Shown here: positions 2,780-62,185 of the stretch, piece by piece
Position numbering within the stretch: the first letter of the stretch is position 1
Layout of the letters: the number at the start of each line of letters is the position of its first letter
Origin: an uncultured Bacteroidales bacterium
Lineage (GTDB): Bacteria; Bacteroidota; Bacteroidia; Bacteroidales; GCA-2748055
Reading direction: 5' to 3'
Assembly (NCBI GenBank): GCA_963751705.1
Contig: CAVVVN010000008.1
Span: 131,259-195,258 of the forward strand
Length of the DNA stretch: 64,000 nt
Notes under the pieces: model-generated
Told to the model about the DNA's origin: nothing
What the model saw: the letters and a program-made list of their open reading frames with translations, nothing else
Databases searched by the model: none
Program-made: the position numbers and the translations under genes

Positions 2780-2836
2780 CTTTTACAAGTATAGCCTGAA
2801 ATACAACTATGCAGGACAGATTTTATCAATAATCCG

Positions 2837-2844: not shown

Positions 2845-2848
2845 CCCG

Positions 2849-3508: not shown

Positions 3509-3567
3509 TTGTGTGGTCTATAATATTTCTTTTAACTTCGCAGGCATTATTAAAAAAAAGAATTTAC

Positions 3568-5726: not shown

Positions 5727-5791
5727 CCATTATTCAGCAATATTTCAATTATCAGTTATACCAATCCTCACTCCGAGGGGTAATTGTAAAA

Positions 5792-6547: not shown

Positions 6548-6670
6548 ATCAATAAATATTAAATTAGTGTCAAGTATGCAGGACCCACGTACACCCATTC
6601 CTGGCCATACATTTGGAACCTGTACTCCCTGGTATAAGTATGCACGCTTGCATACCTTCCAGAGTATTAT

Positions 6671-6686
6671 GCACAATTAATTGTGC
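6671..6686. promoter_or_regulatory. Perfect 16-bp palindrome GCACAATTAATTGTGC in the intergenic region upstream of the TM-TPR gene
   Basis: Read directly at 6671-6686. It lies ~125 nt upstream of ATG 6547 (minus strand) and ~145 nt downstream of the GG-peptide stop. No T-run follows on the minus strand, so an operator is more likely than a terminator. Confidence 0.35.
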
Positions 6687-29842: not shown

Positions 29843-29891
29843 TAAATACTGACTCGATTTTCTGTATGCTCTATTCACGTTTTTCTGGCTT

Positions 29892-33841: not shown

Positions 33842-33844
33842 TTT

Positions 33845-46294: not shown

Positions 46295-47468
46295 TTATCT
46301 GTTCTTTGTATTTCTCATAATAAGGATGAATTAATTGATATTTTTCGCCTGGCTTTCTTTCAAAATATGTGCCGCCCATATAGAAGCATGAATAACCTCC
46401 GGAAACAACTCCCCACATACAGGCCTTTTTTAAATCCAATTGTTTTTCCTCTCGAGAAAGTTGAGAGATAATTGAATAAATAACACCTCCCGCAAAGTTG
46501 TCACCACAACCCGTGGTATCTCCCAGGTGAAAATTCTTCAATTCGTCATATACAGCCTTGCTGACAGGCAACTCAAGATCTCGAATTCTTCTGAAAATGC
46601 TTTTTTCTTTTGCATACAAGTGAATATTCCTCGAACCATTTGTGACTATTACAGCTCCAGTTCCATTTGATTTGAAAAACTCCAATGCATCGCTAATTGC
46701 TGTTTTACCGCTTAGTCGCAAGGCTTCTTCAAAGTCGGCGATTAGGAGATCTATGTGGGCATAACTTTCAATACTCTCACCAAGTGGCCATGCTTGCTCT
46801 GGATTAGCTTTCTCATTACGAAAATCATATACAGTATTTACAATTGTAATACACCCTTTTGACTTTGCCTTAATAAGTATAGCTGTAAGATGATCGTGAA
46901 TAGACGGAACCAGTGCTGTACCTCCAAATACCACCAGATCAGAACCGAAAAAACGATCATCCAATGATTCAGCTTGAAGGTTCCATGCAGCTCCTATGGT
47001 ATTGATAAAAATACGTTCTCCCGCTCCATTGTCATAGGCAGGATCGGACAACACAATGGTGGAAGGCGTCACCTCATCACCTAAATGATAGTTGTCAGTC
47101 AATACCGGCGTTTTCTTTATTGCTTCCATCAGATAGCTGCCATCCTTGTCCCTACCCCCTCTTCCATAAAAATGAAATGTAAAATTCCCCTCATAAGCCA
47201 TTTGAGCTGCATGAATTATCGCAACTATGCCCGGACCTCCAATGTTGATCTTATCTGCAGGTCTCATATTAGTCAATTCTTCAAGCACTTCCTCAAGTCC
47301 CTTCCCCATATAGGATTCAAACTCCTCTTTAAACACCAGGCGACCTGGAATCAGGCCACCGTCACCTCTTTTTTTTGACTGGCAAACTGAGAAAAGTTCT
47401 GAATTAAAAGATATATGGTTGTAAACCCTGTCAACCAGGCAACAACCAACTCCTGAAACGCGAATCAT
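46287..47468 (-). CDS. PfkB-family carbohydrate kinase (long form)
   Basis: 393 aa. PfkB signature GDTTGCGDNFAGG and a GG dipeptide region (NIGGPG). Longer than typical fructokinases or ribokinases. Confidence 0.75.
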   Translation of the reverse strand: MIRVSGVGCCLVDRVYNHISFNSELFSVCQSKKRGDGGLIPGRLVFKEEFESYMGKGLEEVLEELTNMRPADKINIGGPGIVAIIHAAQMAYEGNFTFHFYGRGGRDKDGSYLMEAIKKTPVLTDNYHLGDEVTPSTIVLSDPAYDNGAGERIFINTIGAAWNLQAESLDDRFFGSDLVVFGGTALVPSIHDHLTAILIKAKSKGCITIVNTVYDFRNEKANPEQAWPLGESIESYAHIDLLIADFEEALRLSGKTAISDALEFFKSNGTGAVIVTNGSRNIHLYAKEKSIFRRIRDLELPVSKAVYDELKNFHLGDTTGCGDNFAGGVIYSIISQLSREEKQLDLKKACMWGVVSGGYSCFYMGGTYFERKPGEKYQLIHPYYEKYKEQINE

Positions 47469-47470
47469 TT

Positions 47471-48145
47471 TTATAAGTAATTTAGGTAATCTGATATAAG
47501 CAGGTGCAGGGGAGTTTCATCCTCCTCTATGGTCGGGAACCTTCCAACTTGCTCAAAAAAGCGATTGTCAAGGCTGTCATCATTTACTGCACTTACTTCA
47601 CCTACAAGCACTTTCCCTTTTCCAGGCTCCCCATAGAACCGGTGGTAGAGGCCTTGTTCGAGACAAATACTTTCTCCAGGTGTCAGGGTGATTTTATCAC
47701 CAGCATTCAGGCTTCTGATGATACCATCGGTTTTTACTGTAAAAGATTGATCCGAAAGCCTTTCATTTTCATCCGAATCATACAGCTCGATGATCAGGTT
47801 TCCACCGCCACGGTTGATGATATCTTCCATTTTGCTCCAGTGAAAATGCATGGGGGTCTCCTGCATTTCTTCAACGATCATGGCTTTTTCAGCATAAGGT
47901 TTTTTGTCTAATTTCATGTTCCCGTTACGCAGTGTAAAAAGAATGAGTCCGCGATTATAAAATTCTCCGCTGCCAAAATCAGTCAGATCCCAGCCTAACA
48001 TGTTGTCAACAATTTCAGAACAGGTTTCATTCTTTCCTCTCCAGTCCTCCGGATTCCAATAAGCAAAGGGGGGAAGGTGAAAATTCATTTGTCCGAAAAA
48101 GTCTTTCGATTGCTTAATAAGCAGGTTAATTTCACTTCTTTTCAT
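47471..48145 (-). CDS. D-lyxose/D-mannose ketol-isomerase family cupin
   Basis: 224 aa. MKRSEINLLIKQSKDFF..FHLPPFAYWNPEDW and PMHFHWSKMEDIINRGGGNL, as in the YdaE/Z5688-type lyxose-mannose isomerases. Confidence 0.75.
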   Translation of the reverse strand: MKRSEINLLIKQSKDFFGQMNFHLPPFAYWNPEDWRGKNETCSEIVDNMLGWDLTDFGSGEFYNRGLILFTLRNGNMKLDKKPYAEKAMIVEEMQETPMHFHWSKMEDIINRGGGNLIIELYDSDENERLSDQSFTVKTDGIIRSLNAGDKITLTPGESICLEQGLYHRFYGEPGKGKVLVGEVSAVNDDSLDNRFFEQVGRFPTIEEDETPLHLLISDYLNYL

Positions 48146-48168: not shown

Positions 48169-49980
48169 TTATAATGACAGTAAATAGGCTACCATGTCAT
48201 CTATTTCCTGCTCACTGAGTTCGGATGTCTTTCCATGTCTATCATCCGGATTATAGATTGTAAAAACTTCACGCAGGGAAACAGCCCGCCCGTCATGCAG
48301 GTAAGGCGCCGTCCGCCAGGCTTCAATCAATGACGGGGTATCTACTTTTTTCCCAACATCCTGCCCCAGGGTTGTACCCAGATCGTACATATTCTTATCG
48401 GTATAAAGAGGCGCCGGATGGCACTGTCCACAACCCAGCTGTTCATATATCTTTTTTCCGCGTTTAGCAGCCTTCCCAAGCTTTCCTTTGATTAAAAAAG
48501 GGCTCCTTTCCGGCTCCAATGATTTCAGGTAAGCATCAATGGCTTTGGCATCCTTTTCGGGACGAACTTTAAATTGAATATGCCTAATACCTGCCCGAAC
48601 GCCTGTCTCTCCATCGGCACGTACACCCAGCCACATGGCCCGGGGGGTTTTATGTGCCCATATCATCGACTTTACATTTTTAGGATTGCCCATGCCATCG
48701 TTAAGAAGGTCCCAGTTCAATCCATCGGTGCGGGCATCGGGGTGACAGGTCGCGCAACTAAGCCAGTTCTGGAAACATAAGGATGCATCGTTGAAGAAAA
48801 TCTCACCCTGTCGCTCTGCCGTAATCGGAACCTCTGGAGCCAGCTGGTAGTATGCCGTTTGAATATTGTCCGGATCGGAGAAATCGAGCACTTCCAGGTC
48901 ATCAGAAAAATAATGGGCAACATAGACCGTATTTCCATGCACAGCAATGGCTCGCGGACCATTCCCGTTTAGCTTGATCCGCTTGCGTATATCCTGCAGA
49001 AACGAAAGGTTATTGTGTGTGTTGAGATGCACCTCCTTTGTCGTATTCCCTACTTCTGCTTCCATTTTGCGGGTCATCTCAGACAGGTTTATCAGGCTGA
49101 TTTCATGATTCCCTGCCGCGCTTACTATCATTGTTTTACCATCCCCTGAAAAACCAATAGCCCAGGGATTCGTGAAGCCCCGATCTACATCATCAAGCAG
49201 AACCGTGTATTGCAACGATAAGTCAGAAACACGGATGACACTGAGTGCATCTGTAGAAATCCACCCTCGTGCCAGTTGCGTCGTCGGTACAAAATAACGG
49301 GCCATTAAATGGGTCACATAAACATACTTACCGTCTGGAGATAGTTTAAGGCTGCGTAATCCTTCCGCTCCGTTTACGAGTGGAATGGTGGTCACTTCAA
49401 GGCTTTGGGTGTTAATTACCGAAACCCTGGAGGCGACATAGTCCAGATTGGCAGCTCCATCAGGGATATGGTTGGCAACAAATAAATATTTCCCATCGGG
49501 GGTCAGGTCGGCTGCCACCGGTTCACGTAATACCGGAACACGTGCAATCGCTTTGCCCTTCTTCAGGTTAATGATCGACACATCGTTATTGAAGCGGTTA
49601 CAAACATACAATGTTTCACCATCGGGGCTAAGTACGGGCGACATTGGGGTATGCCCCACGGGAATTTCCTGCTTAAGCCTTCCTGTTTCCGAATCAATTT
49701 GATATACACTCCCATTATATCGCCCGGCCGTCACAAACAAATCTTTCCCATCTGCAGCCGGGATCACTCCGGTAGGTTCTGAATTCAATGGGAACTCATG
49801 AAGCACTTCTTTTGTTCCGGCATCCACACAAAGAATCTTTTTACCGGTGGCTGCCGTTACATAAATGGTTTGCTTATCCGGACTCAGATCAATGTCACAG
49901 GGCGACAGATAATTCTGCGCCAAAGCGGCCGGGCAGCTAAAAAGCAATAGTAGTACAGAATAAAATACTTGCTTTAACAT
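48169..49980 (-). CDS. Fusion of an N-terminal YVTN/lactonase-like beta-propeller with a C-terminal di-haem cytochrome c peroxidase/MauG-family domain
   Basis: 603 aa with a signal peptide. Repeats LSPDKQTIYVT, LSPDGETLYVCN, LTPDGKYLFVAN and LSPDGKYVYVT. CxxCH at 48742-48756 (CATCH) and 48418-48432 (CGQCH). CCP hallmark TPSLIEAWRTAPYLHDGR. Confidence 0.8.
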   Translation of the reverse strand: MLKQVFYSVLLLLFSCPAALAQNYLSPCDIDLSPDKQTIYVTAATGKKILCVDAGTKEVLHEFPLNSEPTGVIPAADGKDLFVTAGRYNGSVYQIDSETGRLKQEIPVGHTPMSPVLSPDGETLYVCNRFNNDVSIINLKKGKAIARVPVLREPVAADLTPDGKYLFVANHIPDGAANLDYVASRVSVINTQSLEVTTIPLVNGAEGLRSLKLSPDGKYVYVTHLMARYFVPTTQLARGWISTDALSVIRVSDLSLQYTVLLDDVDRGFTNPWAIGFSGDGKTMIVSAAGNHEISLINLSEMTRKMEAEVGNTTKEVHLNTHNNLSFLQDIRKRIKLNGNGPRAIAVHGNTVYVAHYFSDDLEVLDFSDPDNIQTAYYQLAPEVPITAERQGEIFFNDASLCFQNWLSCATCHPDARTDGLNWDLLNDGMGNPKNVKSMIWAHKTPRAMWLGVRADGETGVRAGIRHIQFKVRPEKDAKAIDAYLKSLEPERSPFLIKGKLGKAAKRGKKIYEQLGCGQCHPAPLYTDKNMYDLGTTLGQDVGKKVDTPSLIEAWRTAPYLHDGRAVSLREVFTIYNPDDRHGKTSELSEQEIDDMVAYLLSL

Positions 49981-50038: not shown

Positions 50039-52678
50039 TTACAATTTCATTAAAAAAGATGCCGGAGCATATGTATTCAGTTCAAAGGAAAATTTTCCGT
50101 TTTTCACTTCAATAGGATCACCTTGTTTTTCACCACGCAGGGTAAGAGGTTGAACAGACGAAACATGCATTCCTTTGGGTAATTTTACACTACATTTCCC
50201 GGAACTACCAGCTTGTTCCCACAGGCGAAGAATGGTTCCTTCTCCATCCGGATTATCTCCAAAGGCTGTTACCAGAATCCCTTCCCGGGAAAGGGTCAAT
50301 CCCTGGTTCTTACTTTTTAACTTGCCGGCTTTCCCATCTGCTGACCCAACCAGTAAGGGCAATCGGGCCTCCCATGATTTTTTTGTCAGATTCATAAGCG
50401 TTTGTTCATTCTTTGATTTGGCCCATATGCGAACCCGTTCTGTCCACGATCCCTCCTGCCACAGCGGGAAATTGGTATTCCACATGTTGTTGTATAGATT
50501 GACAAAGACCGATGCTGTGCTTGGAACATAATCCATGGAGAACTTCCACAATCCGGGTTCTCCAAAACTCATTATGGGCGAATCCATTGCCGACAATACC
50601 ATTCCTGTATTATCGGCTTGAGTAAGTGCAGCTCCTGTATTTACCGACATTAAATACCTTCCGGCCCCGGGAATGATATCGGTGGCCGGATTAATGGGGG
50701 CCCCTAATCGCCCAATAGTGAATGTGGGATTATCCACAGCAAAGGGGAAACACAACCAGCCACCCTCTGCATGTTTTTCGGCCGTTTTGTTATCGACTTT
50801 CCATTCAATATCAACATAGGCTGCGTCGTGTGGAAAGGTAAAAACCAAAGTGTAATTATCTGCAAAGCCCCGGGTATCTGTTGCTGATAAAACAGCAACA
50901 TCTGCAACATGGGTATGTGATACTGATAATTCCCAATTCTCAGGGGTAAAAGCCCAATAGGGTACTGTATCAGCTTTCGGCATTCCCGGTTTTCCGAAAT
51001 CAACCAAACCCCAACTATCCTTAATCCGGTTGTAGCTGTTCATCCATCTGTCAACTTCAACAGAACTAAAACGCTCGTGTAAAAACTGCCCTATGGCATA
51101 TGCAGAAGATTGATCTACCAATTCACGCTGGCTCTTATTCTCCTTTAAAGAAGAAACACCCCCTCTTGTCAGATCGAAAACAGCAGTAAAATGTGGTGTG
51201 ATAAGCGTCTTTTTTTTATCAGACGAAACTTTATCTTCTTTTAGGTCCTTCTCAGAAATCGTAATGTATCCACCTGCGGGAACGTCTTTGACAAATAAGG
51301 TTCTTTCATCTCCCCAGGGCAGTCTTACCATCCCGGAACGCTTCCAGGGGAGGGCATTATAAACCACAAAGCGCCTGCCGGGAACATCCACCGATCTTGC
51401 CAGTAAGTTTAGCCGGCTATCCAGTTCAGGGGATACAATGTCATTTGCATTATGGATGTATTGGCGATGAGCATCGTAGGACTTTAACCATTTTGCTTTT
51501 TTTCTCGTTGGTAAGCCCGGGATATTTTCATCCTCAGCTCTGAGCTCGGCATTAGCTTCTAAAACCCATTGTTTCCACTCATTCCCATATATTTTAAGTG
51601 GCCCATATGCAGAAGCGCTTCCCCAGGTATGTTCGCCATACAAAAGACTTTGTTCATAAGCCTTTGCAAGTTTTTCGCTTAAAGGCAGGGTCTGAATTCC
51701 CCAAATTCTCATTTGAGTATTCAGGGCATCTAAAGCAGGTCCCAGGGGACGAATATTACGGGCAATTTTCGATTCCTGAGGATTTGACATTAATCCGTGT
51801 ATCCATGTATCCGGTGTATCTCCTTTAACAACGGGCAAATCAGGGTTCTCTTCAAGCAAGGCTTTTGCAAAATCATCGAGGGTAGCGAAATGGACTTTTA
51901 CTCCGGACATCTCTTTTTCTGCATAAGCCAGAAGTTTATCAATATCTTGTTCCGTTGGTGGTCCATGATTGTCACCTGTCATCTGCATGGCCAAATAATT
52001 CTTATAGGGCCAGGTTTTAGGGGGTTTTATATCCGATCCATATAAGGATGTATAATGACAGAGTATTTTAGAACCATCGGGGCCTTCCCACCAGAATAAT
52101 TCAGGGAAACGGGGATAATTACTCGCCGGATTACAGCCCAGCTGCAAGAATTTTATTCCTGCATGATGCAACAAAGTAGGCAATACCCATGAATGGCAAG
52201 GGACATCCGTCATTTTTGCACTGATGGGCAAGGGTAGTCCGTACATGCGGTTAACTGCAGAGGAGTATCCTAACCCACGTACCAGATCTTCGTAATCAAG
52301 CGATCCGGTATGCAATGTGCCGGGAAGCCCGTGAACCACCAAAGAACCTTCTTTTATTGCTTTTTCAATCCTGACTTTACGTTCCGGAGTCTGTAAGGGA
52401 CCAAGAATTTGAGCTTGTAATGGCCAGCCGGCTACTGTCCACGAAAAATGTTTATCTGAGGGCTGCTGTGCATTTTTCTCGATCACATCTAATGATTTAT
52501 CCATCATTTCCTCCCGGTAACGTTCAAAAACATTCTCCGGCAGATCGGTATATCCTAAATCAAAGTGCGTTTTAAACACGACCCAAACATCCGTGACCTG
52601 GGACTTTTGGGCAAAACAATTCATAGTTGTAAGTGCCAGAATAACGCCGATTAAAGCTCGATTAAAAGTTTTTTTCAT
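50039..52678 (-). CDS. Divergent GH38-like alpha-mannosidase-fold protein
   Basis: ATG at 52678 (MKKTFNRALIGVILALTTMNCFAQ; the track starts at TTG 52705). VWVVFKTHFDLGYTD parallels VQHTHTDIGYT of the GH38 copies, but the first His is Lys. About 880 aa and multi-domain. Confidence 0.55.
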   Translation of the reverse strand: MKKTFNRALIGVILALTTMNCFAQKSQVTDVWVVFKTHFDLGYTDLPENVFERYREEMMDKSLDVIEKNAQQPSDKHFSWTVAGWPLQAQILGPLQTPERKVRIEKAIKEGSLVVHGLPGTLHTGSLDYEDLVRGLGYSSAVNRMYGLPLPISAKMTDVPCHSWVLPTLLHHAGIKFLQLGCNPASNYPRFPELFWWEGPDGSKILCHYTSLYGSDIKPPKTWPYKNYLAMQMTGDNHGPPTEQDIDKLLAYAEKEMSGVKVHFATLDDFAKALLEENPDLPVVKGDTPDTWIHGLMSNPQESKIARNIRPLGPALDALNTQMRIWGIQTLPLSEKLAKAYEQSLLYGEHTWGSASAYGPLKIYGNEWKQWVLEANAELRAEDENIPGLPTRKKAKWLKSYDAHRQYIHNANDIVSPELDSRLNLLARSVDVPGRRFVVYNALPWKRSGMVRLPWGDERTLFVKDVPAGGYITISEKDLKEDKVSSDKKKTLITPHFTAVFDLTRGGVSSLKENKSQRELVDQSSAYAIGQFLHERFSSVEVDRWMNSYNRIKDSWGLVDFGKPGMPKADTVPYWAFTPENWELSVSHTHVADVAVLSATDTRGFADNYTLVFTFPHDAAYVDIEWKVDNKTAEKHAEGGWLCFPFAVDNPTFTIGRLGAPINPATDIIPGAGRYLMSVNTGAALTQADNTGMVLSAMDSPIMSFGEPGLWKFSMDYVPSTASVFVNLYNNMWNTNFPLWQEGSWTERVRIWAKSKNEQTLMNLTKKSWEARLPLLVGSADGKAGKLKSKNQGLTLSREGILVTAFGDNPDGEGTILRLWEQAGSSGKCSVKLPKGMHVSSVQPLTLRGEKQGDPIEVKNGKFSFELNTYAPASFLMKL

Positions 52679-52701
52679 ACCCGTTTCCATTCTATGTAAG
52701 T

Positions 52702-55700
52702 TCAAATTATGACTTGCATATAGGTGATTGTTCCAATTTTATCAGAGTCAGGAACCTGCCATACAACTTTTTTGTCTTTGTTTAGCTCAAAAAGAGGTGT
52801 GCCTTTGCCTTTTGCATCCCAACCAAGCCAGTTGCAAACAATGGTGTTGCCATTATCAAGCCTGTTAATTCCAAGAATAAATTGCAGTTTCATCGCCGGG
52901 ACATCTTTTTCAGTTAATTCCCATACGATATTTCCTGCTGTATCATATTCAAGAATTCCTTTCTGCCACGAAACCAAGGTATGTCCATTTTTCAGGCGTT
53001 GCCCCATAAAGACATGCCCCGGGGCATTAAAGTCACGGATAATTTTTCCTTCAGCATCATATTCCCGGGCAAGATTATCTCCCAGATGTCCTACAAGATA
53101 GGTTCCCTGAGGTGTTTTCCGTGCATGCCGGAGTGCCCAGTGCCTGTCTTCATTTTTGCATGTAAGTGGAATGGTCTTTACAATCTCTCCCTGTGGATTT
53201 ATCTCACAAATGCGCAGAGGAACTGATTCTGCAATCAGGGTATTTCCATCACTCAGGCGTTGACAGCTATTGACCTCTCCTTCTGACTTATAGTAAAATA
53301 CCTGCATATGACCGGGTGTTACCTCAATGACCTCTTTGCCCGTTGCAAACAGGACATTCCCGCTGGGGAGTTTTGTCACATCCGTACAGGATCTTGCATC
53401 ATGCTCCCAGATAACACGCCCCTGCCGGTCAAATTCCCGAACCTTCTGAGCTCCATAGTCAGAACATATAAAACTACGTGATGACTGCAGCTGTGTAATA
53501 GAAGGAGAATTGGCAAGGCAGCTTTCCGGATATGGATTCTCGTACAAATGCGGTTTTTCTGCTCCTGGCGGGTAATACCACAAAGACTCCCAGTACCGCT
53601 GATCAGTCTTGTAAAAGTCAATTGGATCCTTAGCCAGGTCGAATGAATCAGGAAGTATCCCATACTTTTTCATCTCACGAACATATTCCCGACGTGGCTT
53701 AAAGCCCTCCATGTCGAATCTTTTTCGTTGATCAAGCAACGAACCTGCCGCCCGGATGCCTTGAAGGATTAATTGGTACTCCGGATCATTCTTGCTCGTA
53801 AATATCGCTTTTTGAGTACTGCTTTTTTCCAATTTACACTTCCCGTATCCTCCAGCATCAGCAGAAAGTGGAGCCAGCAGGATCAATGATTTCTCCGGGT
53901 AACTCAGGTTATAGACAATATCCCGCATAAAATTTGTCTTCCATGTTTTATCACCTACCACCCAGGCTTGTATATGAACGTAGGAAGGATGGGTTGCCAG
54001 GCGGGTATCTCCCTGATGGCAGGATGCACATTTTTTTTCCAGGACTGCTTTCATTTCCTGCACTTCGGGTAGGTCCAGATCACTGTTATCGGTAATCAGG
54101 TGTCCTTCATTCAGTCCAATTGATCCTGTTCCCAGGGCTGCGTATGTACCTGGATAAGTAGCTCCGGTATTTATCCAGTAACGAAGTAACTTAATTTCCT
54201 TCTCAGAAAGTTTCGCATCATGGTGGCTTCCATCGAGCTTGTCCATCAGCGGACTGGCAGCATCTCCTATATCACGGGGAGGATAATTACTGACTGCCAG
54301 ATTTCTTCCCATGACATACTCTCCCCTGGCCTTGAGATTGTAATAACTATGAGAATAAATGGGACCATGATCTCCGGTCAGCAATATACCTCCCATATAA
54401 TTTTCAGGCCTGTGGCATTTGACACAATGTTTGTCAAGCACCGGCTGTATATCCCTGGGAAAGTCAATAATATCCGGTATATCTCTAACGGGTTCAGGGA
54501 TGGAGGGCTTTCGCCGGGCGGCAAGCGGTCTGCTATTTTTCTGTGGAACAGGAGCAGTGGTCCTTTTTTCATGGCATCCGACACAACCTGTTACTTCTCC
54601 CGGCACAACCGATAAAAAACTCTGCATACGCTTTACACTGCTATCGTCTTTATCAAGTGCAACAAAAAAGAAAGGACGGTTTGCAGGTAGTTCCATAATC
54701 GCTGAGCCATCAGCTTCTACAGGAACTGTACCCAGAATACGTTCCAGGGTAAAGCTGCCGCCCCAGGTCAGGGGCTCCATGCTCCCGGTAAACTGACAGG
54801 GTTTTGGCAATGCTTCCAGGATCAATAGTTTTTTTATTTCTCCCTGTTTAATCCCTTCCATGTTTCTACCGGTATACACATCATTTACAAAGAGTGTTCC
54901 GGTTCCTTTCGATAGATCCACCCTGGAAGGGATAACCGGTTCCCGCTTACGCCCGGTTAAGGGACGGGGTTCCTGTACATTCGTATGACCGAATTCCGGT
55001 GGCAGAGAAAAAAATGGAAGTTCATTTCCTTCTGAATCAATAAAAAACATTTTATTGCCACTTGCTGCAATATACAAGTCTTCAGACAAGGGGTACGGAT
55101 CCCGGAAATCACTTCCCTGACTAAGATATTTCAATTGATTAAGATCATCCGGGCCATTGGAAATATTCGCCGTGGCTACTCGCCCGCTATGATCTGTCTG
55201 TCCATGCCCGGGAGAGCAGCTCAGGACAATACTGGAGCTGCCGGGAATCGGTTTGGCATCGATAAAAACATTACCCGGGTTTAAATTGCCATAATAAACC
55301 ATCTGGTTGGTTCCATCGGGCTTCATGGTCCATAAATGATGATAATGCACCTGGCTCCTGTCAATATACTCCCAGCGGGTATAGAGAATTTGTCCGTCGG
55401 GTAGCACCCACGGGGTGTTGTCATGTTCGATATTTGCAGATAACTGGCGAATATTTTTCCCATCCCCATCACACCGGTAAATAGTTGCAACGGGTACCTG
55501 CCAGCAATTCACCCATCTGTTACAGCGACTGGATACAAATATTATCCCACCGTCAGGCAGGTAGATAGGTTCAATATCGGCATAGGGGCCAAAGGTTAAC
55601 TGCTTTAAACCGGTTCCATCAACATTAATTTCGTAAATATGAAAATGCTCGCTCCCGGCTTTTCTCCAGGAAAACAGGATTTTTTGACCATCGTAATGTA

Positions 55701-56433
55701 ACTGGGGATCGCGAACCGTTCCTTCAGGATCATTCACCAAGGTGCTTATATTACCTGTGCTCATATTGTATTTGCATAAACGCCCCTGCTTCCCATAGTT
55801 TTTGTATGATGGATCCAGGCAGTAGTAGGCGAAATTTGCATACCAATGCCCCCATACGTGGTCCTTGCAATCTTCCCGAACAGCAAACACTATCTCCTCA
55901 AAGTTCAACTGCTTTTTAATCGCATTCAATTTCGCTTTGCGCCTTTTTTCAGTCTCTCTCTTTCGGAGCTCAACGATTCTTGCAGGTTCAGGATCGGGAA
56001 ATGTAATATCCCATATGGAATAACACAGGGCCGGATCTTTATTTATAGATAGGATGCGAAAGAAACGCCCCTGAAATTCCAGGTGGTTTAAGGTGGTTAA
56101 ACCACCTTTCCCATTCTTTTCATGGTATACCGTATTCCAATCTTCACCGTTTCCGGAAGATTGAATACAAAATTCCTTTGCAGAGGTATTCTCCCAGTGA
56201 ATGATAATATTCTCAAACGATACTGATTTGTGAAAGTCATAAAGCAACCAGGCAGTCTGCTCATTTTTTTTACTGACCCACCGGCTGGTTTCATCTCCAT
56301 CAAAGGCGTATTCAGCCAGATAAGTCGTACCTAATTTACCCGAAGAACGACTTATTGTATCCTGAGCCTGCAACACAGGGTTGAACAGAGATAATACCAG
56401 CACAACTGGAAAAGAAATCGATTTGATTTTCAT
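52702..56433 (-). CDS. Giant secreted multidomain protein: discoidin domain + TolB/HzsA-like beta-propeller + three CxxCH haem-c motifs (PSCyt1-like) + C-terminal beta-propeller
   Basis: ATG at 56433 (MKIKSISFPVVLVLSLFNPVLQAQ; the track starts at TTG 56454). Discoidin YAFDGDETSRWVS..AWLLYDF. Propeller DPQLHYDGQKILFSW / IEPIYLPDGGIIFVS / NTPWVLPDGQILYTR. CVGCH 54571-54585, CVKCH 54412-54426 (IQPVLDKHCVKCH..GGILL, PSCyt1-like), and CASCH 54016-54030. The C-terminal repeats run D.QGRVIWE, NPQGEIVKT, DAEGKIIRDF, DTAGNIVWEL and KDKKVVWQV. Confidence 0.8.
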   Translation of the reverse strand: MKIKSISFPVVLVLSLFNPVLQAQDTISRSSGKLGTTYLAEYAFDGDETSRWVSKKNEQTAWLLYDFHKSVSFENIIIHWENTSAKEFCIQSSGNGEDWNTVYHEKNGKGGLTTLNHLEFQGRFFRILSINKDPALCYSIWDITFPDPEPARIVELRKRETEKRRKAKLNAIKKQLNFEEIVFAVREDCKDHVWGHWYANFAYYCLDPSYKNYGKQGRLCKYNMSTGNISTLVNDPEGTVRDPQLHYDGQKILFSWRKAGSEHFHIYEINVDGTGLKQLTFGPYADIEPIYLPDGGIIFVSSRCNRWVNCWQVPVATIYRCDGDGKNIRQLSANIEHDNTPWVLPDGQILYTRWEYIDRSQVHYHHLWTMKPDGTNQMVYYGNLNPGNVFIDAKPIPGSSSIVLSCSPGHGQTDHSGRVATANISNGPDDLNQLKYLSQGSDFRDPYPLSEDLYIAASGNKMFFIDSEGNELPFFSLPPEFGHTNVQEPRPLTGRKREPVIPSRVDLSKGTGTLFVNDVYTGRNMEGIKQGEIKKLLILEALPKPCQFTGSMEPLTWGGSFTLERILGTVPVEADGSAIMELPANRPFFFVALDKDDSSVKRMQSFLSVVPGEVTGCVGCHEKRTTAPVPQKNSRPLAARRKPSIPEPVRDIPDIIDFPRDIQPVLDKHCVKCHRPENYMGGILLTGDHGPIYSHSYYNLKARGEYVMGRNLAVSNYPPRDIGDAASPLMDKLDGSHHDAKLSEKEIKLLRYWINTGATYPGTYAALGTGSIGLNEGHLITDNSDLDLPEVQEMKAVLEKKCASCHQGDTRLATHPSYVHIQAWVVGDKTWKTNFMRDIVYNLSYPEKSLILLAPLSADAGGYGKCKLEKSSTQKAIFTSKNDPEYQLILQGIRAAGSLLDQRKRFDMEGFKPRREYVREMKKYGILPDSFDLAKDPIDFYKTDQRYWESLWYYPPGAEKPHLYENPYPESCLANSPSITQLQSSRSFICSDYGAQKVREFDRQGRVIWEHDARSCTDVTKLPSGNVLFATGKEVIEVTPGHMQVFYYKSEGEVNSCQRLSDGNTLIAESVPLRICEINPQGEIVKTIPLTCKNEDRHWALRHARKTPQGTYLVGHLGDNLAREYDAEGKIIRDFNAPGHVFMGQRLKNGHTLVSWQKGILEYDTAGNIVWELTEKDVPAMKLQFILGINRLDNGNTIVCNWLGWDAKGKGTPLFELNKDKKVVWQVPDSDKIGTITYMQVII

Positions 56434-56450
56434 CTCGCAAATTTGCATTA

Positions 56451-57746
56451 TCAATTTTCCAAAAATCTTCTGTTTACTTTATTGTACCACTCTACGTTTT
56501 TCCAGTTCTCCCAATAAGGGTGGCTGTAATTCCATGGGGTAGATCCCCATAGTTGATAATCAGACGAAAGTTGCATGCTTTCTTCACACCAATCATATAA
56601 CCACTTCCAGGTCAGGTCTTTATGATCCATGTGCCACCAGGGGCCCCAGGCTTCAGTGGTCGTAAGTGGGGCACCAATTTCTTCCGACCACTCTTTTGCC
56701 CAGGCCAATCGGTTGTGCATGTCTTTCATCAGCATTGGGCGCGATGAAAGCATTGTTTTTTCCAGCCTGTCCATATAGTCTTTATGGTCGTGAATGCCCC
56801 GGTCTTTTTTTATCCCGCCAAAACCGGAACGTGAATTAAATCGTTCACTTTGGGAGAGCCAAAAGTGCAGTTCCAGTACATCAAAAGATTTAATATTCAT
56901 TGCCCTGATTTCTTTCCAATAGGAGGTAAATGAGAAGGTAAATCGTAATTCGGGATATTTGTGTTGAAAGTGGGTTAAGGTGCTGTTTAAGTAATTGCGT
57001 ACAAATTCCATTTGCCGGGGATTCCAGGCCAGCCTGTCAAAGTTCGCCTGGACACTTCCTGCCGCTTCCATGGCAGCTAATGCCGAAGCGGATGGTTCCA
57101 TGTTTATTTGACCCAGGTGGTTTAGCTCCTCTGCTACCGGGCTGAAATATGGAAATTCCTGGTCGAAATCAACATAAACAACATGGCTTAAAAGATCTTC
57201 CTTTTTCAATAGGTCCAATACTTTTTCCCAGGCTTTCCATATCTCTTCAGGATGGGTATAATCTTCCTTGAGGTTTGGGAATTCAAGTACACCTCCAAGT
57301 GCCCAGGAAGAAAGTATAACAGAGATGTTTTTCTCCTTGGCTGTTTTCATAAAATCCAATAATTCAGTAATCACGGCATGTTTGCGATCCTTATCAGTGG
57401 CACCCCAATTTTCCAGTGGAGCAGCGGCAATGGTCACTTCCTGATCCTTATGTTCCATTTTCCCAATTACCAATGGAAAAGCATCGATGCGTACCGTGTT
57501 AAACCCGCGCTCGAGGAGTTCGTCAAGAACTTTATTGTAGTCTTCAAAAAAACCACCTTTATAATGTTGATTTAACCAGGAGAAGTCCCACATGGCAATG
57601 GTCAGTCGGGATGGTGTAAGTTCTGAGCGCATGTCGTAATTTCCAGACTTTTCATTTGCTCTGGTTTCAGGCTGTTTGGACGTACAGCTAAACAGGACAA
57701 TTCCGATGAGTAAAAAAACACTCATTACACATGTGTATTTTTTCAT
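56451..57746 (-). CDS. Lipoprotein, cellulase-like (beta/alpha)8 barrel of unassigned family
   Basis: ATG at 57746 (MKKYTCVMSVFLLIGIVLFSCTS; the track starts at TTG 57767). GFNTVRIDAFP, ISVILSSWALGG, candidate acid/base VYVDFDQEFPYF, and candidate nucleophile PLTTTEAWGPWW. Confidence 0.55.
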   Translation of the reverse strand: MKKYTCVMSVFLLIGIVLFSCTSKQPETRANEKSGNYDMRSELTPSRLTIAMWDFSWLNQHYKGGFFEDYNKVLDELLERGFNTVRIDAFPLVIGKMEHKDQEVTIAAAPLENWGATDKDRKHAVITELLDFMKTAKEKNISVILSSWALGGVLEFPNLKEDYTHPEEIWKAWEKVLDLLKKEDLLSHVVYVDFDQEFPYFSPVAEELNHLGQINMEPSASALAAMEAAGSVQANFDRLAWNPRQMEFVRNYLNSTLTHFQHKYPELRFTFSFTSYWKEIRAMNIKSFDVLELHFWLSQSERFNSRSGFGGIKKDRGIHDHKDYMDRLEKTMLSSRPMLMKDMHNRLAWAKEWSEEIGAPLTTTEAWGPWWHMDHKDLTWKWLYDWCEESMQLSSDYQLWGSTPWNYSHPYWENWKNVEWYNKVNRRFLEN

Positions 57747-57810: not shown

Positions 57811-59235
57811 TTATAATTCAAGTTCCGGATAGTATCCTGAAATTAGTTCCCTGTCTATTTTGTCAAGGTCTTTCAGCCGTACAGGTTTGTCCTGTGGCCG
57901 CAATCCCTTCTGGTTGATCCGGTTCATCAGGCTCCAATCTTTCACCGGGTACTCCGGGCTTGGATCGGCAGGTTCCCGGGCCGAGAGATCGTAACGGGTA
58001 AAATCAATTACTTTCTCCGGGCTGTTTTTATGCCAGTTCCGAAGAAGGGCCAGCCGGAATTCTTTATTCATAAACCAGCGGATCTCTTCATCACCCCATG
58101 AATTACCTATTCCCAATCCTTTTTCTTCAAAACGGTAATTCCATTTTTCATTATCCGGATAATGCTGCCTCCATATCTCCCCATACTCTCCAAACGAGAT
58201 AAACTGAACATCCGGCCAACGTTCTTTGGTTCCACTTACCCATTTTTCGAGAGCCCTTAGAACGAGCTGATCGTGCCAGTTTTTCCGTTCAGGTGCTTTC
58301 ACAAGAGAAGCCTCCCATATATTGGGAATCCAGCCAAACCCATTTAATTCAAAGCCACGGTCGAAATGCAACGATTGGGTATGCATAACCGAAATATGCC
58401 CGATATCCAGTCCCCATTCTATATAGTTTTCTATGGGCCCCACTCCGCGTCGGCTCGAAGCCCCGTTATACAGACTGGAACTGCTGGTAACACCTCCACT
58501 GATCTTTGCGCATAAGAAATCGATGCTCCAACCGTCTAGATTTACACAGTCGATAAAATCCCTGTTATTCTGGGCTGGCTTACAAAAATGTTCTTTTGAA
58601 GGATAGTAAGGATACGACGGAGATCCATCCGCACCACCACCATCAACATCATGCTGGCTCCAGATCACCCCGTGGGCAACATGGACATCCTCTTCCTCCG
58701 AAAGGTAGCGCATATTTTCAGCAGCCAGATATCCTCCCATAATGGATTTTGGCCTGTATCCGTTTCCTACAAAATCAGAAATTATCTGAAGCGCTTCACT
58801 TATTTCTTTATTTACTCGTTGCCGGGGAAGGTACATGGCCGGAAAATATCCCGGCATATAGGATATTTCATCGCCGTATTTTTTCTGGCACTCTACAACA
58901 TATTTCCTGATATCCACATAATTTTTTCTTTTATCTTCCAGTGCATTCAGCGTAAATCCCCAGGTTAAGCGGCCTTCTGGATTATTCTTTGAAAAAGCTT
59001 CACGCATATCACGCACCACTTCCAGAGTGTGTATTTCATATTCCTCCCGCGGATGAAGTTTTACATCTCTGGACACTTCCCATGGGGAAGTCCGAATCAT
59101 TATACATAAGGTTACAAAACGCTTACCTGTTAACTGATCTACTAAGGAATTATTCATTGCACTCAAGACATGAGGAGCTGCCATTGCCCCTACGCCTGAA
59201 AGAGCTGAATCTTTTAAAAAAGTACGTCTATTCAT
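57811..59235 (-). CDS. Tat-exported protein of unknown function
   Basis: 474 aa. Twin-arginine signal MNRRTFLKDSALSGVGAMAAPHVLSA. No family recognised. Confidence 0.6.
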   Translation of the reverse strand: MNRRTFLKDSALSGVGAMAAPHVLSAMNNSLVDQLTGKRFVTLCIMIRTSPWEVSRDVKLHPREEYEIHTLEVVRDMREAFSKNNPEGRLTWGFTLNALEDKRKNYVDIRKYVVECQKKYGDEISYMPGYFPAMYLPRQRVNKEISEALQIISDFVGNGYRPKSIMGGYLAAENMRYLSEEEDVHVAHGVIWSQHDVDGGGADGSPSYPYYPSKEHFCKPAQNNRDFIDCVNLDGWSIDFLCAKISGGVTSSSSLYNGASSRRGVGPIENYIEWGLDIGHISVMHTQSLHFDRGFELNGFGWIPNIWEASLVKAPERKNWHDQLVLRALEKWVSGTKERWPDVQFISFGEYGEIWRQHYPDNEKWNYRFEEKGLGIGNSWGDEEIRWFMNKEFRLALLRNWHKNSPEKVIDFTRYDLSAREPADPSPEYPVKDWSLMNRINQKGLRPQDKPVRLKDLDKIDRELISGYYPELEL

Positions 59236-59254: not shown

Positions 59255-62185
59255 TTACCAGGTAACTTTTATGAATTTTGTTTCATGGGGAAGTAATGCC
59301 ACGCTGGCAACATCTATCGCTGATTCTCCGAGTACGTCAACCTCCTGCGTTTGAAAAGTGTTGATCCCTTTAACTGCAAAATTTGTTTTTTTGCCATTTA
59401 ACTCACGCATATGAAAGATAACGGCATTTTCACCGGTCAGTGGTTTTGAATTAACCAATAATACATTGTTTGGGAACTCCTCAAATACAGATTCAAAGTC
59501 GGTGTTACGCTCAGTCTTTCCTGCAGGGATGACACGGCCTAACAACGGAATCCTTGCATTCCAGCCAAATTGAGTTGAAAAACTATTGGATACATCGGCG
59601 GAAGAAGTGAAGTAATAGGTCCATTCAAACTCACCACGTTGGTCTACTGCAAAGTTTGTAACCCAGTAATTGTTCATGGGCCAGCCAATCACATATGGTT
59701 TTTCAGGTTTTGCTGAAGCGTCGTAGCGCCCGGTGTTAATCCCCCCAAACTGCATCAATGCGGTTTCGGGACTTCCAATAACCAATTGTGTATCCTCATT
59801 TTTTACCGACACAAAATTCTGTACGGTGTTCCAGTCATTTGATGATCCGGGAATTTGATCTACTCCTGCTTCTACCAGGCCTCCCTGTACATCAAAGTTT
59901 ATTTTCCCTTCGTCAAGCAGGAATGGAAATGCCACATAGATAGCTTCAGGATCGGTCACCGGTTTCTTCACCACATTATAGACAAAATCAATCCTTTTTG
60001 TTGTATTATAAAGCCTGATTCCCAGCTTAAAACCCTCATCGCCATAAGCGGCCATTTCCATTTTCCCGGCAAAGTGCATCTCCTTCCAGATGGGCTGATT
60101 TTCAATTCCTTTGAAAGCAAAATTCGCAAGGCCATATCGCTTGTAGTCCTGCATCCACTTACGATCGGGTTCCCTCCTTTCGACCAGATGGCCTTTGTTT
60201 ATTTCCGCCCTGTTTCCTAATTGTTCGTAAATAATCTCACCTAGTTTCCAGGGTGCATTTTTATCGACAAGTTCTTTGTTTAGTTCTTTGTCGATCAAGC
60301 TTGTAACAACTCCTTTTTTCGTGTCAACCACAATTTTGTACCACTTATTTTCCAGGGAAGAAAGCTCATTTGTATCCATTTTCACTCTCTTTCTGCTGGC
60401 ATCTTCATTGACTTCTATCCGTAACTGCTTACAGCCAAAAGCGGGAACATCATTCACCCAAATCAGCCAGTATGCACTACCTCCGTGAGGTTCGTACACC
60501 TGTGCGGGCATTATGTCCCCGTTCTCATCTATGATCTTAAACTCCTTATTTATTGGAAGTTGCTGCTCGTCTATATAAACCTTCATGCAGGCACTCCGTT
60601 TCCATGCCATGGTGTTAAACACTGCGATACTTGGCACATCAAGTTTAGGAATGTATTCCTGCAACAGGCCCATCGCCTCTTCATTAACAGAGCGAGCCCT
60701 GCGATGAGCTTCCCAGGCATAGGATTCTTTCAGAGCCCTTTGTTCCATAGATCCTTTGCTATAGGGGCGGCTAATACTTGCATGAAATCCAAAGGTATGT
60801 TCGTCGTAAAACAGGATGGCATCATTCACAGCAAAGATCCTTTCGTCAATCTCAGCTGGCATCTTTTCCCCAAGTACTTTAGCCATGCTCAATGCTTCCT
60901 GGGACGCAATAATATCCACATGGGATTCCCTCGATTTACTAACCTCTCTTGCACCGGAGCCAAAACCATCGGTCCACCAATCGGGCCAGGCAGCGCGGTA
61001 AACTTCAAGTTCGCCTGCATGCTTCTCCTCAATCTCCTCAAAAAATTCGCAGGCTGTGGCAGTTTTAAGCTTCGGCCAATCGTATTTGTTGTTCCACTTC
61101 CGGATCATTTCGCTGCCCCTCAACGAGGGAGGTGAGTTATCCGTATGATACCCTGAATACTGAATAGAGGTAATATCAAATGGATAGCCTGTATCATACA
61201 ATTCTGAAAGATAGATCAACATCTTCTTTTCAAAATTTTCAAAATTATCTGTGTGAATTCCGAAGAAATTACCCTGGTGGTAGTGTTCTGCACGGAAAGC
61301 AAGCATTCTGTTCCCTGAGGGAGATTCCCACCAAAAGGCAGTAGGCCTGTCAAAGGGGATCAGGGCTCTATGGCCATGTGTACCCATATTTAAATATTTT
61401 ACCCCCAGTGTACTATAGAAGTCATTGAAACACCAGCCAATGCCGTTGACATCATTTTGCATGGCCACTTTGGCCTGTAAGCCGTGCTTACGGAACATTT
61501 CAAAAGGTTTGAGTGAGGCAGCATAAGCTTGCTCATCAGGCATCTCATCAAAGTTCAGGTACATGGCAGCCAGTTCTATGCGGCCTTCTTTTACTCTTTG
61601 CTTCAGGCGGTCAATTTGTTTTTGAGGCCTTGAGATCAGATATTTTTCCACCGGCCAGGTTACTTCACAGGTCCATCTGAATTTTGCAGCATCTGGATAA
61701 TCATCGGTTTGGTCACAATAGTCAAGCGCATAATCGATCATCCGGAGATGGTCGGCTAACACATCGCTTTGAGGACGGGTATATCCTATATCGGTATGTA
61801 CGTGTTGCACAAAATTCACCCGCCATTTCCGGGAAGGCATAGCAGTTGCTGTTATGGAAGTTGTTTTATCATCAACAAGCAGTTTTAAGCGTGTTACCTC
61901 CCCGCTTTTATTAGCTTTGGCAAAAAAGAACAGGTCGTTATTTCCCTTACGCAGTCTTTGTTTGATTATCACGTGGTTGCCCTGTTTGATAATGGCTTCT
62001 GTGCTGTTTTCCCCCTCATACGCAAGCTTACACAACATGGGTACCTCCGTCTGATTATTCTTTAGCTCGGCTTGTAATACAATCGCTTTGGTCACAGTAG
62101 TTTTATCTGCCGGCATTCCGGAAACAAAACCGGAACAGATAAAAAAGAGCGTAATAATAAATGTGAATTTTGTCATGGTTCTCAT
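59255..62185 (-). CDS. GH38-type alpha-mannosidase, copy B
   Basis: 976 aa (an alternative ATG at 62176 aligns exactly with the copy A start). About 93% amino-acid identity to copy A overall. VNFVQHVHTDIGYT. Confidence 0.8.
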   Translation of the reverse strand: MRTMTKFTFIITLFFICSGFVSGMPADKTTVTKAIVLQAELKNNQTEVPMLCKLAYEGENSTEAIIKQGNHVIIKQRLRKGNNDLFFFAKANKSGEVTRLKLLVDDKTTSITATAMPSRKWRVNFVQHVHTDIGYTRPQSDVLADHLRMIDYALDYCDQTDDYPDAAKFRWTCEVTWPVEKYLISRPQKQIDRLKQRVKEGRIELAAMYLNFDEMPDEQAYAASLKPFEMFRKHGLQAKVAMQNDVNGIGWCFNDFYSTLGVKYLNMGTHGHRALIPFDRPTAFWWESPSGNRMLAFRAEHYHQGNFFGIHTDNFENFEKKMLIYLSELYDTGYPFDITSIQYSGYHTDNSPPSLRGSEMIRKWNNKYDWPKLKTATACEFFEEIEEKHAGELEVYRAAWPDWWTDGFGSGAREVSKSRESHVDIIASQEALSMAKVLGEKMPAEIDERIFAVNDAILFYDEHTFGFHASISRPYSKGSMEQRALKESYAWEAHRRARSVNEEAMGLLQEYIPKLDVPSIAVFNTMAWKRSACMKVYIDEQQLPINKEFKIIDENGDIMPAQVYEPHGGSAYWLIWVNDVPAFGCKQLRIEVNEDASRKRVKMDTNELSSLENKWYKIVVDTKKGVVTSLIDKELNKELVDKNAPWKLGEIIYEQLGNRAEINKGHLVERREPDRKWMQDYKRYGLANFAFKGIENQPIWKEMHFAGKMEMAAYGDEGFKLGIRLYNTTKRIDFVYNVVKKPVTDPEAIYVAFPFLLDEGKINFDVQGGLVEAGVDQIPGSSNDWNTVQNFVSVKNEDTQLVIGSPETALMQFGGINTGRYDASAKPEKPYVIGWPMNNYWVTNFAVDQRGEFEWTYYFTSSADVSNSFSTQFGWNARIPLLGRVIPAGKTERNTDFESVFEEFPNNVLLVNSKPLTGENAVIFHMRELNGKKTNFAVKGINTFQTQEVDVLGESAIDVASVALLPHETKFIKVTW
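60006..60958 (-). repeat. Near-identical core of the GH38 duplication (copy B side)
   Basis: Counterpart of 40531-41483 at offset +19,475. The antisense track ORFs 40801-41013 and 60276-60488 translate identically. Confidence 0.85.

Follow-up and report, generated by a model that had tools for sequence, protein, structure and literature searches.

A hydrazine-synthase-like multihaem gene set in a glycan-degradation locus of an uncultured Bacteroidales bacterium

The gene at 52702–56433 on the minus strand of a 64-kb stretch of DNA from an uncultured Bacteroidales bacterium (the whole stretch is called the window) encodes a protein with a signal peptide and three haem c attachment motifs, and the core of this protein is a full-length homologue of HzsA, the alpha subunit of hydrazine synthase (HZS). 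The initial annotation treated it as a lone fusion protein. Its main features hold up, but two companions had been overlooked: the gene, called alpha here, is one member of an HZS-like gene set that also includes a partner in which relatives of the beta and gamma subunits are fused (beta-gamma, 48169–49980, minus strand) and, possibly, an FG-GAP/CRTAC1-like gene. The favoured reading, with a probability of about 0.55, is that alpha is the large subunit of an HZS-like multihaem c-type complex, a putative periplasmic oxidoreductase with five haems, that would be tethered to glycans and would serve as an accessory to their breakdown without being specific for mannan.

The alpha protein and its relation to HzsA

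An AlphaFold2 model of alpha residues 166–1243 (predicted local distance difference test score, pLDDT, 89.2; predicted template modelling score 0.75) has its best solved fold match in HzsA of Kuenenia (5C2V, chain 5c2v_D; Foldseek E 1.1e-27). The alignment of 783 columns spans the whole 770-residue chain, with a template modelling (TM) score of 0.61, normalised to the target, at 20% identity. The two proteins are also linked by direct comparison with phmmer (E 1e-14), where four stretches align and include both haem sites, and by the Pfam domain HZS_alpha, which scores 69.5 bits against a cut-off of 26.6 at residues 538–629. That range, like every other marked as TTG numbering, was printed for a longer, 1250-residue translation from an upstream TTG, and numbering from the ATG is lower by 7. 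Foldseek and Pfam agree that alpha keeps the three-part fold of HzsA: a propeller, a haem-binding middle domain and a C-terminal haem domain. The likeness to "HzsA-related" proteins that the initial annotation saw was therefore well judged. The NCBIfam equivalog model for hydrazine synthase alpha (NF052339) gives 72.9 bits, below its cut-off of 800.

Translation likely starts at ATG 56433, which yields 1243 residues, and a public protein (P0001) is 100% identical to this product. The upstream in-frame TTG at 56454 would extend the open reading frame (ORF) to 52702–56454. Only 17 nt lie between the stop of the upstream gene (56451) and the ATG. The first 24 residues (56362–56433), MKIKSISFPVVLVLSLFNPVLQAQ, read as a Sec-type signal peptide that has no lipobox cysteine.

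The signal peptide is followed by a carbohydrate-binding module of family 32 (CBM32/discoidin, F5_F8_type_C) at 56005–56346, about residues 30–143. The Pfam match scores 56.7 bits with a cut-off of 28.2 (residues 38–138, TTG numbering), and the module matches the solved CBM32 of a Paenibacillus glucanase/chitosanase at E 1e-10, or 5.6e-20 with a family profile, as well as solved domains of NagH/NagJ-type enzymes and alginate lyases. Next comes a TolB/PD40-like beta-propeller (54934–55893, about residues 181–500), supported by Pfam and NCBIfam matches, conservation and the fold match. A true TolB identity was considered and rejected: the score against TIGR02800 is 44.4 bits with a cut-off of 343, and the propeller fold is all that is held in common. 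The HZS_alpha middle domain (54568–54843, residues 531–622) ends in the first haem motif, and two haem-bearing regions lead to a second, C-terminal propeller at 52723–53448 (residues 996–1237). The signal peptide, the discoidin module and both propellers had all been proposed by the initial annotation and are borne out.

The three CxxCH motifs translate exactly where that annotation placed them. Motif 1, CVGCH (54571–54585, C617–H621), aligns in phmmer with CSGCHY of HzsA and corresponds to its haem alpha-I. Motif 2, CVKCH (54412–54426, C670–H674), corresponds to haem alpha-II: in the fourth phmmer stretch, IDFPRDIQPVLDKHCVKCH of alpha aligns with VDFRRDIQPILDAKCAMCH of HzsA. The site that had been likened to PSCyt1 is therefore the alpha-II haem site, and PSCyt1 itself (PF07635) has no Pfam match to alpha at E ≤ 1. 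Motif 3, CASCH (54016–54030, C802–H806), is an additional cytochrome c-type site that is absent from the two-haem HzsA; around it, near residue 800, Pfam places Haem_bd and Cytochrome_CBB3, both under their cut-offs. None of 20,000 shuffled versions of alpha reaches three CxxCH motifs, and among the 37 ORFs of the window only the alpha and beta-gamma proteins carry one. Three ORFs on the opposite strand (52724–53101, 54220–54615 and 54419–54796) are nested entirely within the alpha gene.

Loss of the motifs in homologues had been named in advance as a finding that would speak against the initial proposal. All three are invariant, both in an alignment of 39 homologues and in one of 120. Around haem 1, the 120 homologues likewise share without exception E622 and R624, which follow the motif, and K601 and M603, which precede it; R602 is kept in 119 of them. 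In HzsA the iron of haem alpha-I is held by Tyr591, four residues past the CxxCH histidine, and not by the histidine itself (PMC12758564; PMC12607021). In alpha, His621 is followed by EKRTTAPV, and the family consensus CHExRT contains no tyrosine, so an ordinary His-ligated haem 1 is expected.

Conservation is uneven along the protein. Mean identity of the homologues to the window alpha is 65% in the HZS_alpha middle domain, 58% in the TolB/PD40-like propeller, which has many invariant polar residues, and 56% in the region of the second haem. It is 43% in the third-haem domain, 38% in the C-terminal propeller (present in 13 of 38 sequences) and 31% in CBM32. A propeller and haem domains that are 56–65% identical across phyla, set against 31% for the binding module, fit a putative small-molecule site that is kept constant while the targeting modules vary.

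The C-terminal propeller is of the arylsulfotransferase-like or Mala_s_1-like kind. The initial annotation had counted five blades and called it PQQ-like or arylsulfotransferase-like. The model shows 24 strands, which make six blades, and Pfam reports no PQQ family for alpha. The arylsulfotransferase label is the apt one, although the corresponding model (PF05935) scores 17 bits, under its cut-off of 24.2, while the Mala_s_1-like family (PF22701) scores 45.4 bits with a cut-off of 27.5 (residues 1031–1209, TTG numbering). The C-terminal 258 residues match Bacteroides caccae BACCAC_01654 (PDB 3no2) with E 1e-21 and a TM score of 0.84. Used alone as a query, the propeller retrieves 2306 clusters, nearly all of them stand-alone proteins of about 300 residues with PF22701, PF14269 and PF05935, which NCBI often names "aryl-sulfate sulfotransferase"; in the window, by contrast, this propeller is fused to the HZS-alpha-like core. 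The stand-alone relatives were tried as a guide to function and set aside, as the two contexts examined were loosely hydrolase-rich, uninformative and not beside HZS-like genes. Two Lentisphaerota loci have a stand-alone homologue of the propeller (30–38% identical) 4–9 kb upstream of a short-form alpha (L046, 804–1520; L054, 507–1076). This hints that the window fusion joins genes that elsewhere are neighbours.

The fused beta-gamma partner and comparison with known systems

The beta-gamma gene encodes 603 residues with a signal peptide, a seven-bladed propeller like that of HzsB and a di-haem domain like that of HzsC. Residues 26–364 match HzsB (5c2v_B) at E 4.7e-29, and residues 389–536 match HzsC (5c2v_C) at E 2.3e-25. 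The structural model has a pLDDT of 83, and its best fold match is again HzsB (TM score 0.83). The best NCBIfam model is the hydrazine_BC fusion subunit (163.6 bits, E 5.7e-48, with an equivalog cut-off of 1250), and the scores against NF052340, NF052341 and NF052342 (119.7, 94.9 and 163.6 bits) all stay below the respective cut-offs of 560, 625 and 1250. An insertion with helices at 299–320 lies between two strands of the propeller and aligns with the corresponding stretch of HzsB. It may be the blade-6 insertion of HZS, the blade being read from the strand list of the model and not from a structural comparison. In HzsB that insertion sits in the tunnel joining the two active sites of HZS (PMC12758564).

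The two haem motifs of beta-gamma, CATCH (48742–48756, C409–H413) and CGQCH (48418–48432, C517–H521), are invariant in 61 homologues. Two features that mark the gamma subunit of HZS are changed. Alignment to HzsC puts Trp450 (48631–48633) at the position of gamma-His144, and 50 of the 61 homologues have tryptophan there; gamma-Cys165, which makes the third covalent haem bond of HZS, aligns to a gap. A tryptophan there is characteristic of peroxidases and MauG, whose catalytic tryptophan is equated with this position, and homologues from bacteria that do not carry out anaerobic ammonium oxidation (anammox) have it too (PMC12758564). The CCP_MauG family (PF03150) matches beta-gamma with 35.1 bits, above its cut-off of 25.6, and there are weak matches to MauG and MbnH. 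The protein thus shares two CxxCH motifs, the tryptophan position and an above-threshold family match with the superfamily of di-haem cytochrome c peroxidases, MauG and MbnH. It differs from them in its fusion to a seven-bladed propeller, in a di-haem part that is nearer to HzsC (E 1e-26) than to any peroxidase (E 1e-7), and in an extra conserved cysteine. This residue, Cys402 (48775–48777), stands 7 residues ahead of motif 1; 60 of 61 homologues keep it, and the aligned HzsC sequence has nothing equivalent. A cysteine of the propeller, Cys127, is kept in 58 of 61. The two could be joined as a disulfide, or could serve as an additional link to haem or as a ligand. The beta-gamma family comprises at least 6627 clusters, and its nearest named members, at about 60% identity, come from Pontiella species, Planctomycetes bacterium CA13 and Novipirellula.

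Set beside HZS (5C2V), the alpha protein of the window has the same domain order and both haem sites, the genes are linked in the two systems, and beta-gamma matches both the beta propeller and the gamma di-haem domain, including the helical stretch at 299–320. The differences are an identity of only about 20%, the missing tyrosine ligand and third covalent cysteine, and the tryptophan in place of gamma-His144. The window pair also adds a third alpha haem, an N-terminal CBM32 and a C-terminal propeller, has beta and gamma fused, and lies in a glycan locus.

Closer counterparts have been described. In non-anammox bacteria, alpha and fused beta-gamma homologues are co-localised, with an FG-GAP (CRTAC1-family) gene in the clusters of clades I–III, and key catalytic residues of these homologues are not conserved (Hagglund et al. 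2025, PMC12758564). The window set shares with these pairs the co-localisation, a canonical haem alpha-I and tryptophan at the gamma-His144 position. It has an FG-GAP/CRTAC1-like gene in its neighbourhood as well, but at a distance of four genes on the upstream side of alpha. In contrast to the published pairs, the window pair is split by a GH38-like gene, and its alpha protein has three haem sites and an arylsulfotransferase-like propeller. Its beta-gamma protein is without the extra N-terminal multihaem domains found in clade I. The supplementary tables of that study list "discoidin domain-containing protein" entries of about 960–980 residues among weak HzsA matches, while carbohydrates, CBM32 and glycan loci go unmentioned in its text. 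A. lusitana, whose clusters are placed in clade IV there, encodes a protein (P0074) that is 50% identical to the window alpha.

Family distribution and gene context

The alpha architecture is far from the "unprecedented" one that had been announced. A protein search for alpha homologues returns at least 3887 clusters at 90% identity. A HMMER scan with the 810-residue core recovers representatives of at least 1649 clusters (50% identity) at E ≤ 1e-30, a number that rises to 5804 at E ≤ 1e-10, and a scan of species-representative genomes gives at least 599 confirmed matches, the best 80 loci of which were used for locus analyses. Among the matches listed for those genomes, no relative exceeds 56% identity. 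Most of the best 80 loci belong to the PVC group (Planctomycetota, Verrucomicrobiota and Lentisphaerota); Hydrogenedentota account for several, and Armatimonadota, Acidobacteriota, Bacteroidota and Proteobacteria for a few. Close homologues are found in cultivated Pontiella, Novipirellula and Anaerohalosphaera species.

The usual form of the family is about 970 residues long, with CBM32, the propeller, the HZS_alpha domain and the haem domains; CBM32 is present in most members. The C-terminal propeller is found in about 16 of the top 120 homologues, with or without CBM32, and the window alpha reads as an extended, rarer variant of the family. Several thousand public proteins of the family are entered as, for example, "discoidin domain-containing protein" or "translocation protein TolB". 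The first name is silent on the haem-binding core, and the second (as for P0038 and P0074, in NCBI and UniRef records) is misleading. Further genes with the HZS_alpha domain adjoin the alpha homologue in L004, L023, L024, L040 and other PVC-group loci (9 neighbours in 45 loci), which suggests local gene duplication in the family.

The link between alpha and beta-gamma is recurrent. The relatives that have the C-terminal propeller include P0004, P0003, P0058, P0106, P0021, P0040 and P0005, and the first four of these have the two genes directly adjacent. The locus of P0004 (72% identical, L082) runs GH38, alpha, beta-gamma, an unknown gene and GH92, where GH denotes a glycoside hydrolase family, and that of P0003 (66%, L084) has beta-gamma followed by alpha. 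For P0058 (46%, L087) the order is GH106, SASA, DUF3863/4, two unknown genes, beta-gamma and alpha with a 4-nt overlap, a further unknown gene, GH31 and a sulfatase. For P0106 (46%, L088/L089) it is GtaA-like, GH43, GH127, beta-gamma and alpha, again with a 4-nt overlap, and GH32, and no sulfatase or mannosidase gene is called in the roughly 16 kb covered. The remaining three have alpha with GH2 (P0021, L090), alpha after a GH29 fucosidase (P0040, L083) and alpha with a sugar transporter (P0005, L086). The flanks of P0023 and P0061 are short and their context is uninformative. Close relatives thus lie among glycoside hydrolase genes. Homologues consistently placed in settings unrelated to carbohydrates had been named in advance as a finding against the initial proposal, and this finding does not arise.

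Of the 80 distant loci, 16 have beta-gamma within 10 kb of alpha; the two genes share a strand in every case and are immediate neighbours in 14. When 178 neighbours from 45 of these loci were tallied by Pfam family, CCP_MauG came up 11 times, paralogues with HZS_alpha 9 times and GFO_IDH_MocA 5 times. The subfamily with the extra propeller is clearly set in glycan loci, but the same does not hold for the whole family. The idea of a consistent glycan context in distant relatives was rejected on this tally, in which glycoside hydrolases are only scattered. An oxidative 3-keto-glycoside pathway was also considered as a partner process, given GFO_IDH_MocA, 3keto-disac_hyd and AP_endonuc_2 genes nearby, and was rejected on their small counts. 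These three families are very common in genomes of Planctomycetota and Verrucomicrobiota.

In the window, the genes on the minus strand run in the order FG-GAP/UnbV_ASPIC, GH38, DUF3863/DUF3864, cellulase-like, alpha, GH38-like and beta-gamma, followed by a lyxose isomerase, a PfkB kinase and a mannitol-dehydrogenase-like gene. Downstream of these lies an array of GH92, GH38, major facilitator superfamily (MFS) transporter, ROK kinase and sulfatase genes. Alpha itself belongs to a one-strand array with eight GH92, three GH38-type and three sulfatase genes. The GH38-like gene that separates alpha from beta-gamma (50039–52705) is on the same strand as both, with short gaps. The FG-GAP/UnbV_ASPIC (CRTAC1-like) gene (62198–64000, minus strand) is neither between nor beside the pair. 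It is listed as an ORF of 580 residues and continues past the end of the window, as there is no in-frame stop between 64000 and 63940 and the listed N terminus falls inside the UnbV_ASPIC domain. The DUF3863/DUF3864 gene (57811–59235, minus strand), two genes upstream of alpha, is of uncertain membership in the system. In the unrelated locus L087, a copy that is 47% identical (2561–4021) precedes the beta-gamma/alpha pair, three genes upstream, and the gene may be a recurring companion of the pair.

Directly downstream of beta-gamma, at 45086–48145 on the minus strand, are the genes for the D-lyxose(mannose)-isomerase-like, PfkB kinase and mannitol-dehydrogenase-like proteins, which together with the MFS transporter and ROK kinase (32690–34768) make a plausible route for freed mannose. 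Two proteins of about 600 residues encoded in the GH92 array (28073–29878 and 23782–25575, both minus strand) have no Pfam match apart from a sub-threshold GHL10 match in the second, and they are possibly glycan-active enzymes or binding proteins. The GH38 gene of L082 (221–3142) is 79–80% identical to both window GH38 genes at 39780–42701 and 59255–62185 (minus strand). The two are probably close paralogues, each having been compared only with the L082 gene, and L082 is a smaller, related locus of mannan type.

The low-coordinate edge of the window has a tyrosine recombinase (1568–2779, minus strand) with Arm-DNA-bind_5 and Phage_int_SAM_5, domains characteristic of Bacteroidota elements. Also found there are separate adjacent ORFs for a HisKA kinase and a tetratricopeptide repeat protein (4863–6676, minus strand) and a gene for a CHAT-domain protein (8469–10031, plus strand). 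The window has a G+C content of 43% and contains no SusC/SusD pair, tRNA or Rfam match, and scans of it for promoters and terminators gave counts no higher than in shuffles.

Proposed working, alternatives and significance

From the homologies, the conserved haem motifs, the gene linkage and the loss of HZS-specific residues, we infer a scheme for how the pair may work. Both proteins would be exported to the periplasm by their Sec signal peptides and would have their haems attached there, three on alpha and two on beta-gamma. Two reaction sites joined by a tunnel are a feature of HZS. By analogy, the subunits would dock as they do in that enzyme, and the two reaction sites would lie at haem 1 of alpha, which is placed between the propeller and the middle domain, and at the first of the two haems in the di-haem module. 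The remaining haems would pass electrons to or from an external redox partner. That alpha and beta-gamma form such a two-subunit complex is probable.

The substrate is expected to be small and common because the core is so well kept across phyla while the targeting modules vary and the hydrolase sets differ. The chemistry would then be carried out with a small, widely available oxidant or reactive species. Peroxide is the first candidate because the residues that define HZS are missing and the di-haem module resembles bacterial cytochrome c peroxidase and MauG; nitrogen chemistry would not be expected. Peroxide-type chemistry is nevertheless a tentative suggestion, and rather unlikely on present evidence. 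The CBM32 and the arylsulfotransferase-like propeller would be add-ons that hold the complex on a glycan or bind freed sugars. Because the same pair accompanies genes for different glycans, its role would be that of a general aid to glycan breakdown rather than one tied to mannan. For the subfamily with the extra propeller, the odds of a role in glycan catabolism are even.

Several points weigh against this scheme. Complex formation, the tunnel and the substrate are all argued by analogy, and confidence in the beta-gamma model is low for its di-haem part. Met603, invariant and close to haem 1, could act as a sixth ligand, in which case this haem would be a plain electron carrier. Where the flanks of a distant locus reach 3 kb or more on each side (40 loci), beta-gamma falls within 10 kb of alpha in 9 and is missing from that range in about 78%, and four discoidin-bearing long forms have no beta-gamma gene in their available, short flanks. 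The 45 tallied loci, which are mostly from the PVC group, have heterogeneous neighbours, with glycoside hydrolases merely scattered among them. The two families are represented in strict anaerobes such as Pontiella and Anaerohalosphaera and also in aerobic planctomycetes, so the case for any strictly oxygen-dependent chemistry is weakened. As the initial annotation had also said, no characterised member is known: a literature search found no experimental or functional study of any protein of the family.

The first alternative, the main idea of the initial annotation, makes alpha a redox enzyme whose direct target is sulfated alpha-mannan or a decoration of it, through oxidation, demethylation or sulfo-group chemistry, with CBM32 and the last propeller as the substrate-binding and catalytic parts. 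The setting in the window speaks for it, as alpha stands with the GH92, GH38-type and sulfatase genes of the one-strand array and carries CBM32, the stand-alone relatives of the last propeller bear a sulfotransferase name, and the L082 locus is likewise of mannan type, with its GH38 and GH92 genes. The relatives argue the other way. A long-form pair is found among GH43, GH127 and GH32 genes with no sulfatase or mannosidase called nearby (L088), and another among GH106, GH31 and a sulfatase (L087). The last propeller is missing from most of the top 120 members, its match to PF05935 is below threshold, and the contexts in the PVC group are not related to mannan. A published account of how the sulfated mannan of diatoms is degraded mentions no cytochrome or propeller component. 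With the same pair accompanying quite different enzyme sets, one of them without a called sulfatase, mannan- or sulfo-specific chemistry is unlikely, and this alternative is an improbable one.

It is also doubtful that alpha is an electron conduit only, a three-haem carrier without a catalytic haem that would work between periplasmic sugar dehydrogenases and the respiratory chain, in either direction. The three canonical CxxCH motifs, the loss of the HzsA tyrosine ligation and the possible ligation by Met603 are consistent with a carrier, as are the GFO_IDH_MocA genes near homologues (among the neighbours tallied above, and also in L083) and an AP_endonuc_2 gene that adjoins alpha in L094. GFO_IDH_MocA is so numerous in PVC-group genomes, however, that its proximity is likely due to chance. 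The 320-residue propeller is the second most conserved part of the protein and rich in invariant polar residues, which is unexpected in a passive carrier, and linkage to a partner of the peroxidase/MauG type points to catalysis.

Less credible still is a housekeeping role in the detoxification of peroxide or nitric oxide, of the cytochrome c peroxidase kind, in which the position in the locus would be incidental and CBM32 would anchor the protein to glycans of the cell's own envelope. The peroxidase/MauG-like traits of the di-haem module, the mixed contexts of distant relatives, the occurrence in anaerobes and aerobes alike and an AhpC gene nearby in L093 would all suit such a role. It does not account well for a pair that recurs, on one strand and with stop and start codons that overlap, within glycoside hydrolase arrays of four locus types, or for the tight packing of the window locus, where 17 nt separate alpha from the gene before it.

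A true hydrazine synthase, or a related enzyme converting nitric oxide, hydroxylamine or ammonium, can be dismissed with little hesitation, and hydrazine synthesis itself is excluded as far as sequence can tell: the two subunits are homologous to HZS alpha, beta and gamma, but they score far below all four equivalog cut-offs and lack the tyrosine, gamma-Cys165 and gamma-His144 of that enzyme, no other anammox gene occurs in the window, and the same conclusion has been drawn for the clade I–III homologues (PMC12758564).

The preferred reading, a glycan-tethered HZS-like complex, builds on two lines of earlier work. HZS-like alpha/beta-gamma pairs outside anammox bacteria are already known, having been described in 2025 with no function assigned. 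In Verrucomicrobia, c-type cytochromes that are fused to a CBM and lie close to sulfatases had been pointed out in 2017, and a role for these PSCyt proteins in carbohydrate metabolism was suspected (He et al. 2017, PMC5615132). The PSCyt proteins of Verrucomicrobia and Planctomycetes resemble alpha as periplasmic c-type cytochromes fused to a CBM or F5_F8_type_C module, often near sulfatases (PMC5615132); alpha differs in having no PSCyt match in Pfam and in a fold and a partner that are HZS-like. New, as far as the literature search shows, are the recurrence of the pair in glycan-degradation loci of differing content, the regular presence of CBM32 in the family and the subfamily that adds an arylsulfotransferase-like propeller.

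For anammox research, the question at stake is the origin of hydrazine synthase. The window locus and its relatives give HZS homologues a concrete setting, with glycan loci, fusion to CBM32 and cultivated hosts, in which their function becomes testable. A five-haem periplasmic complex in a locus of hydrolases and sulfatases would lie outside the usual picture of glycan degradation. If it is catalytic on or near glycans, it would represent a new kind of accessory activity; if it serves instead for peroxidase-type protection or as an electron carrier, the finding is a modest one. A bolder and quite speculative possibility is that HZS-like alpha/beta-gamma complexes with carbohydrate-binding modules are widespread, unrecognised redox accessory enzymes for glycan breakdown, in which a high-valent di-haem centre of the peroxidase/MauG type would oxidise sugars or chains bound to the CBM32 and the extra propeller. 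If this were true, they would be a haem c counterpart of the copper-dependent oxidative enzymes that could work in anaerobes, and hydrazine synthase would have evolved from a glycan-linked enzyme.

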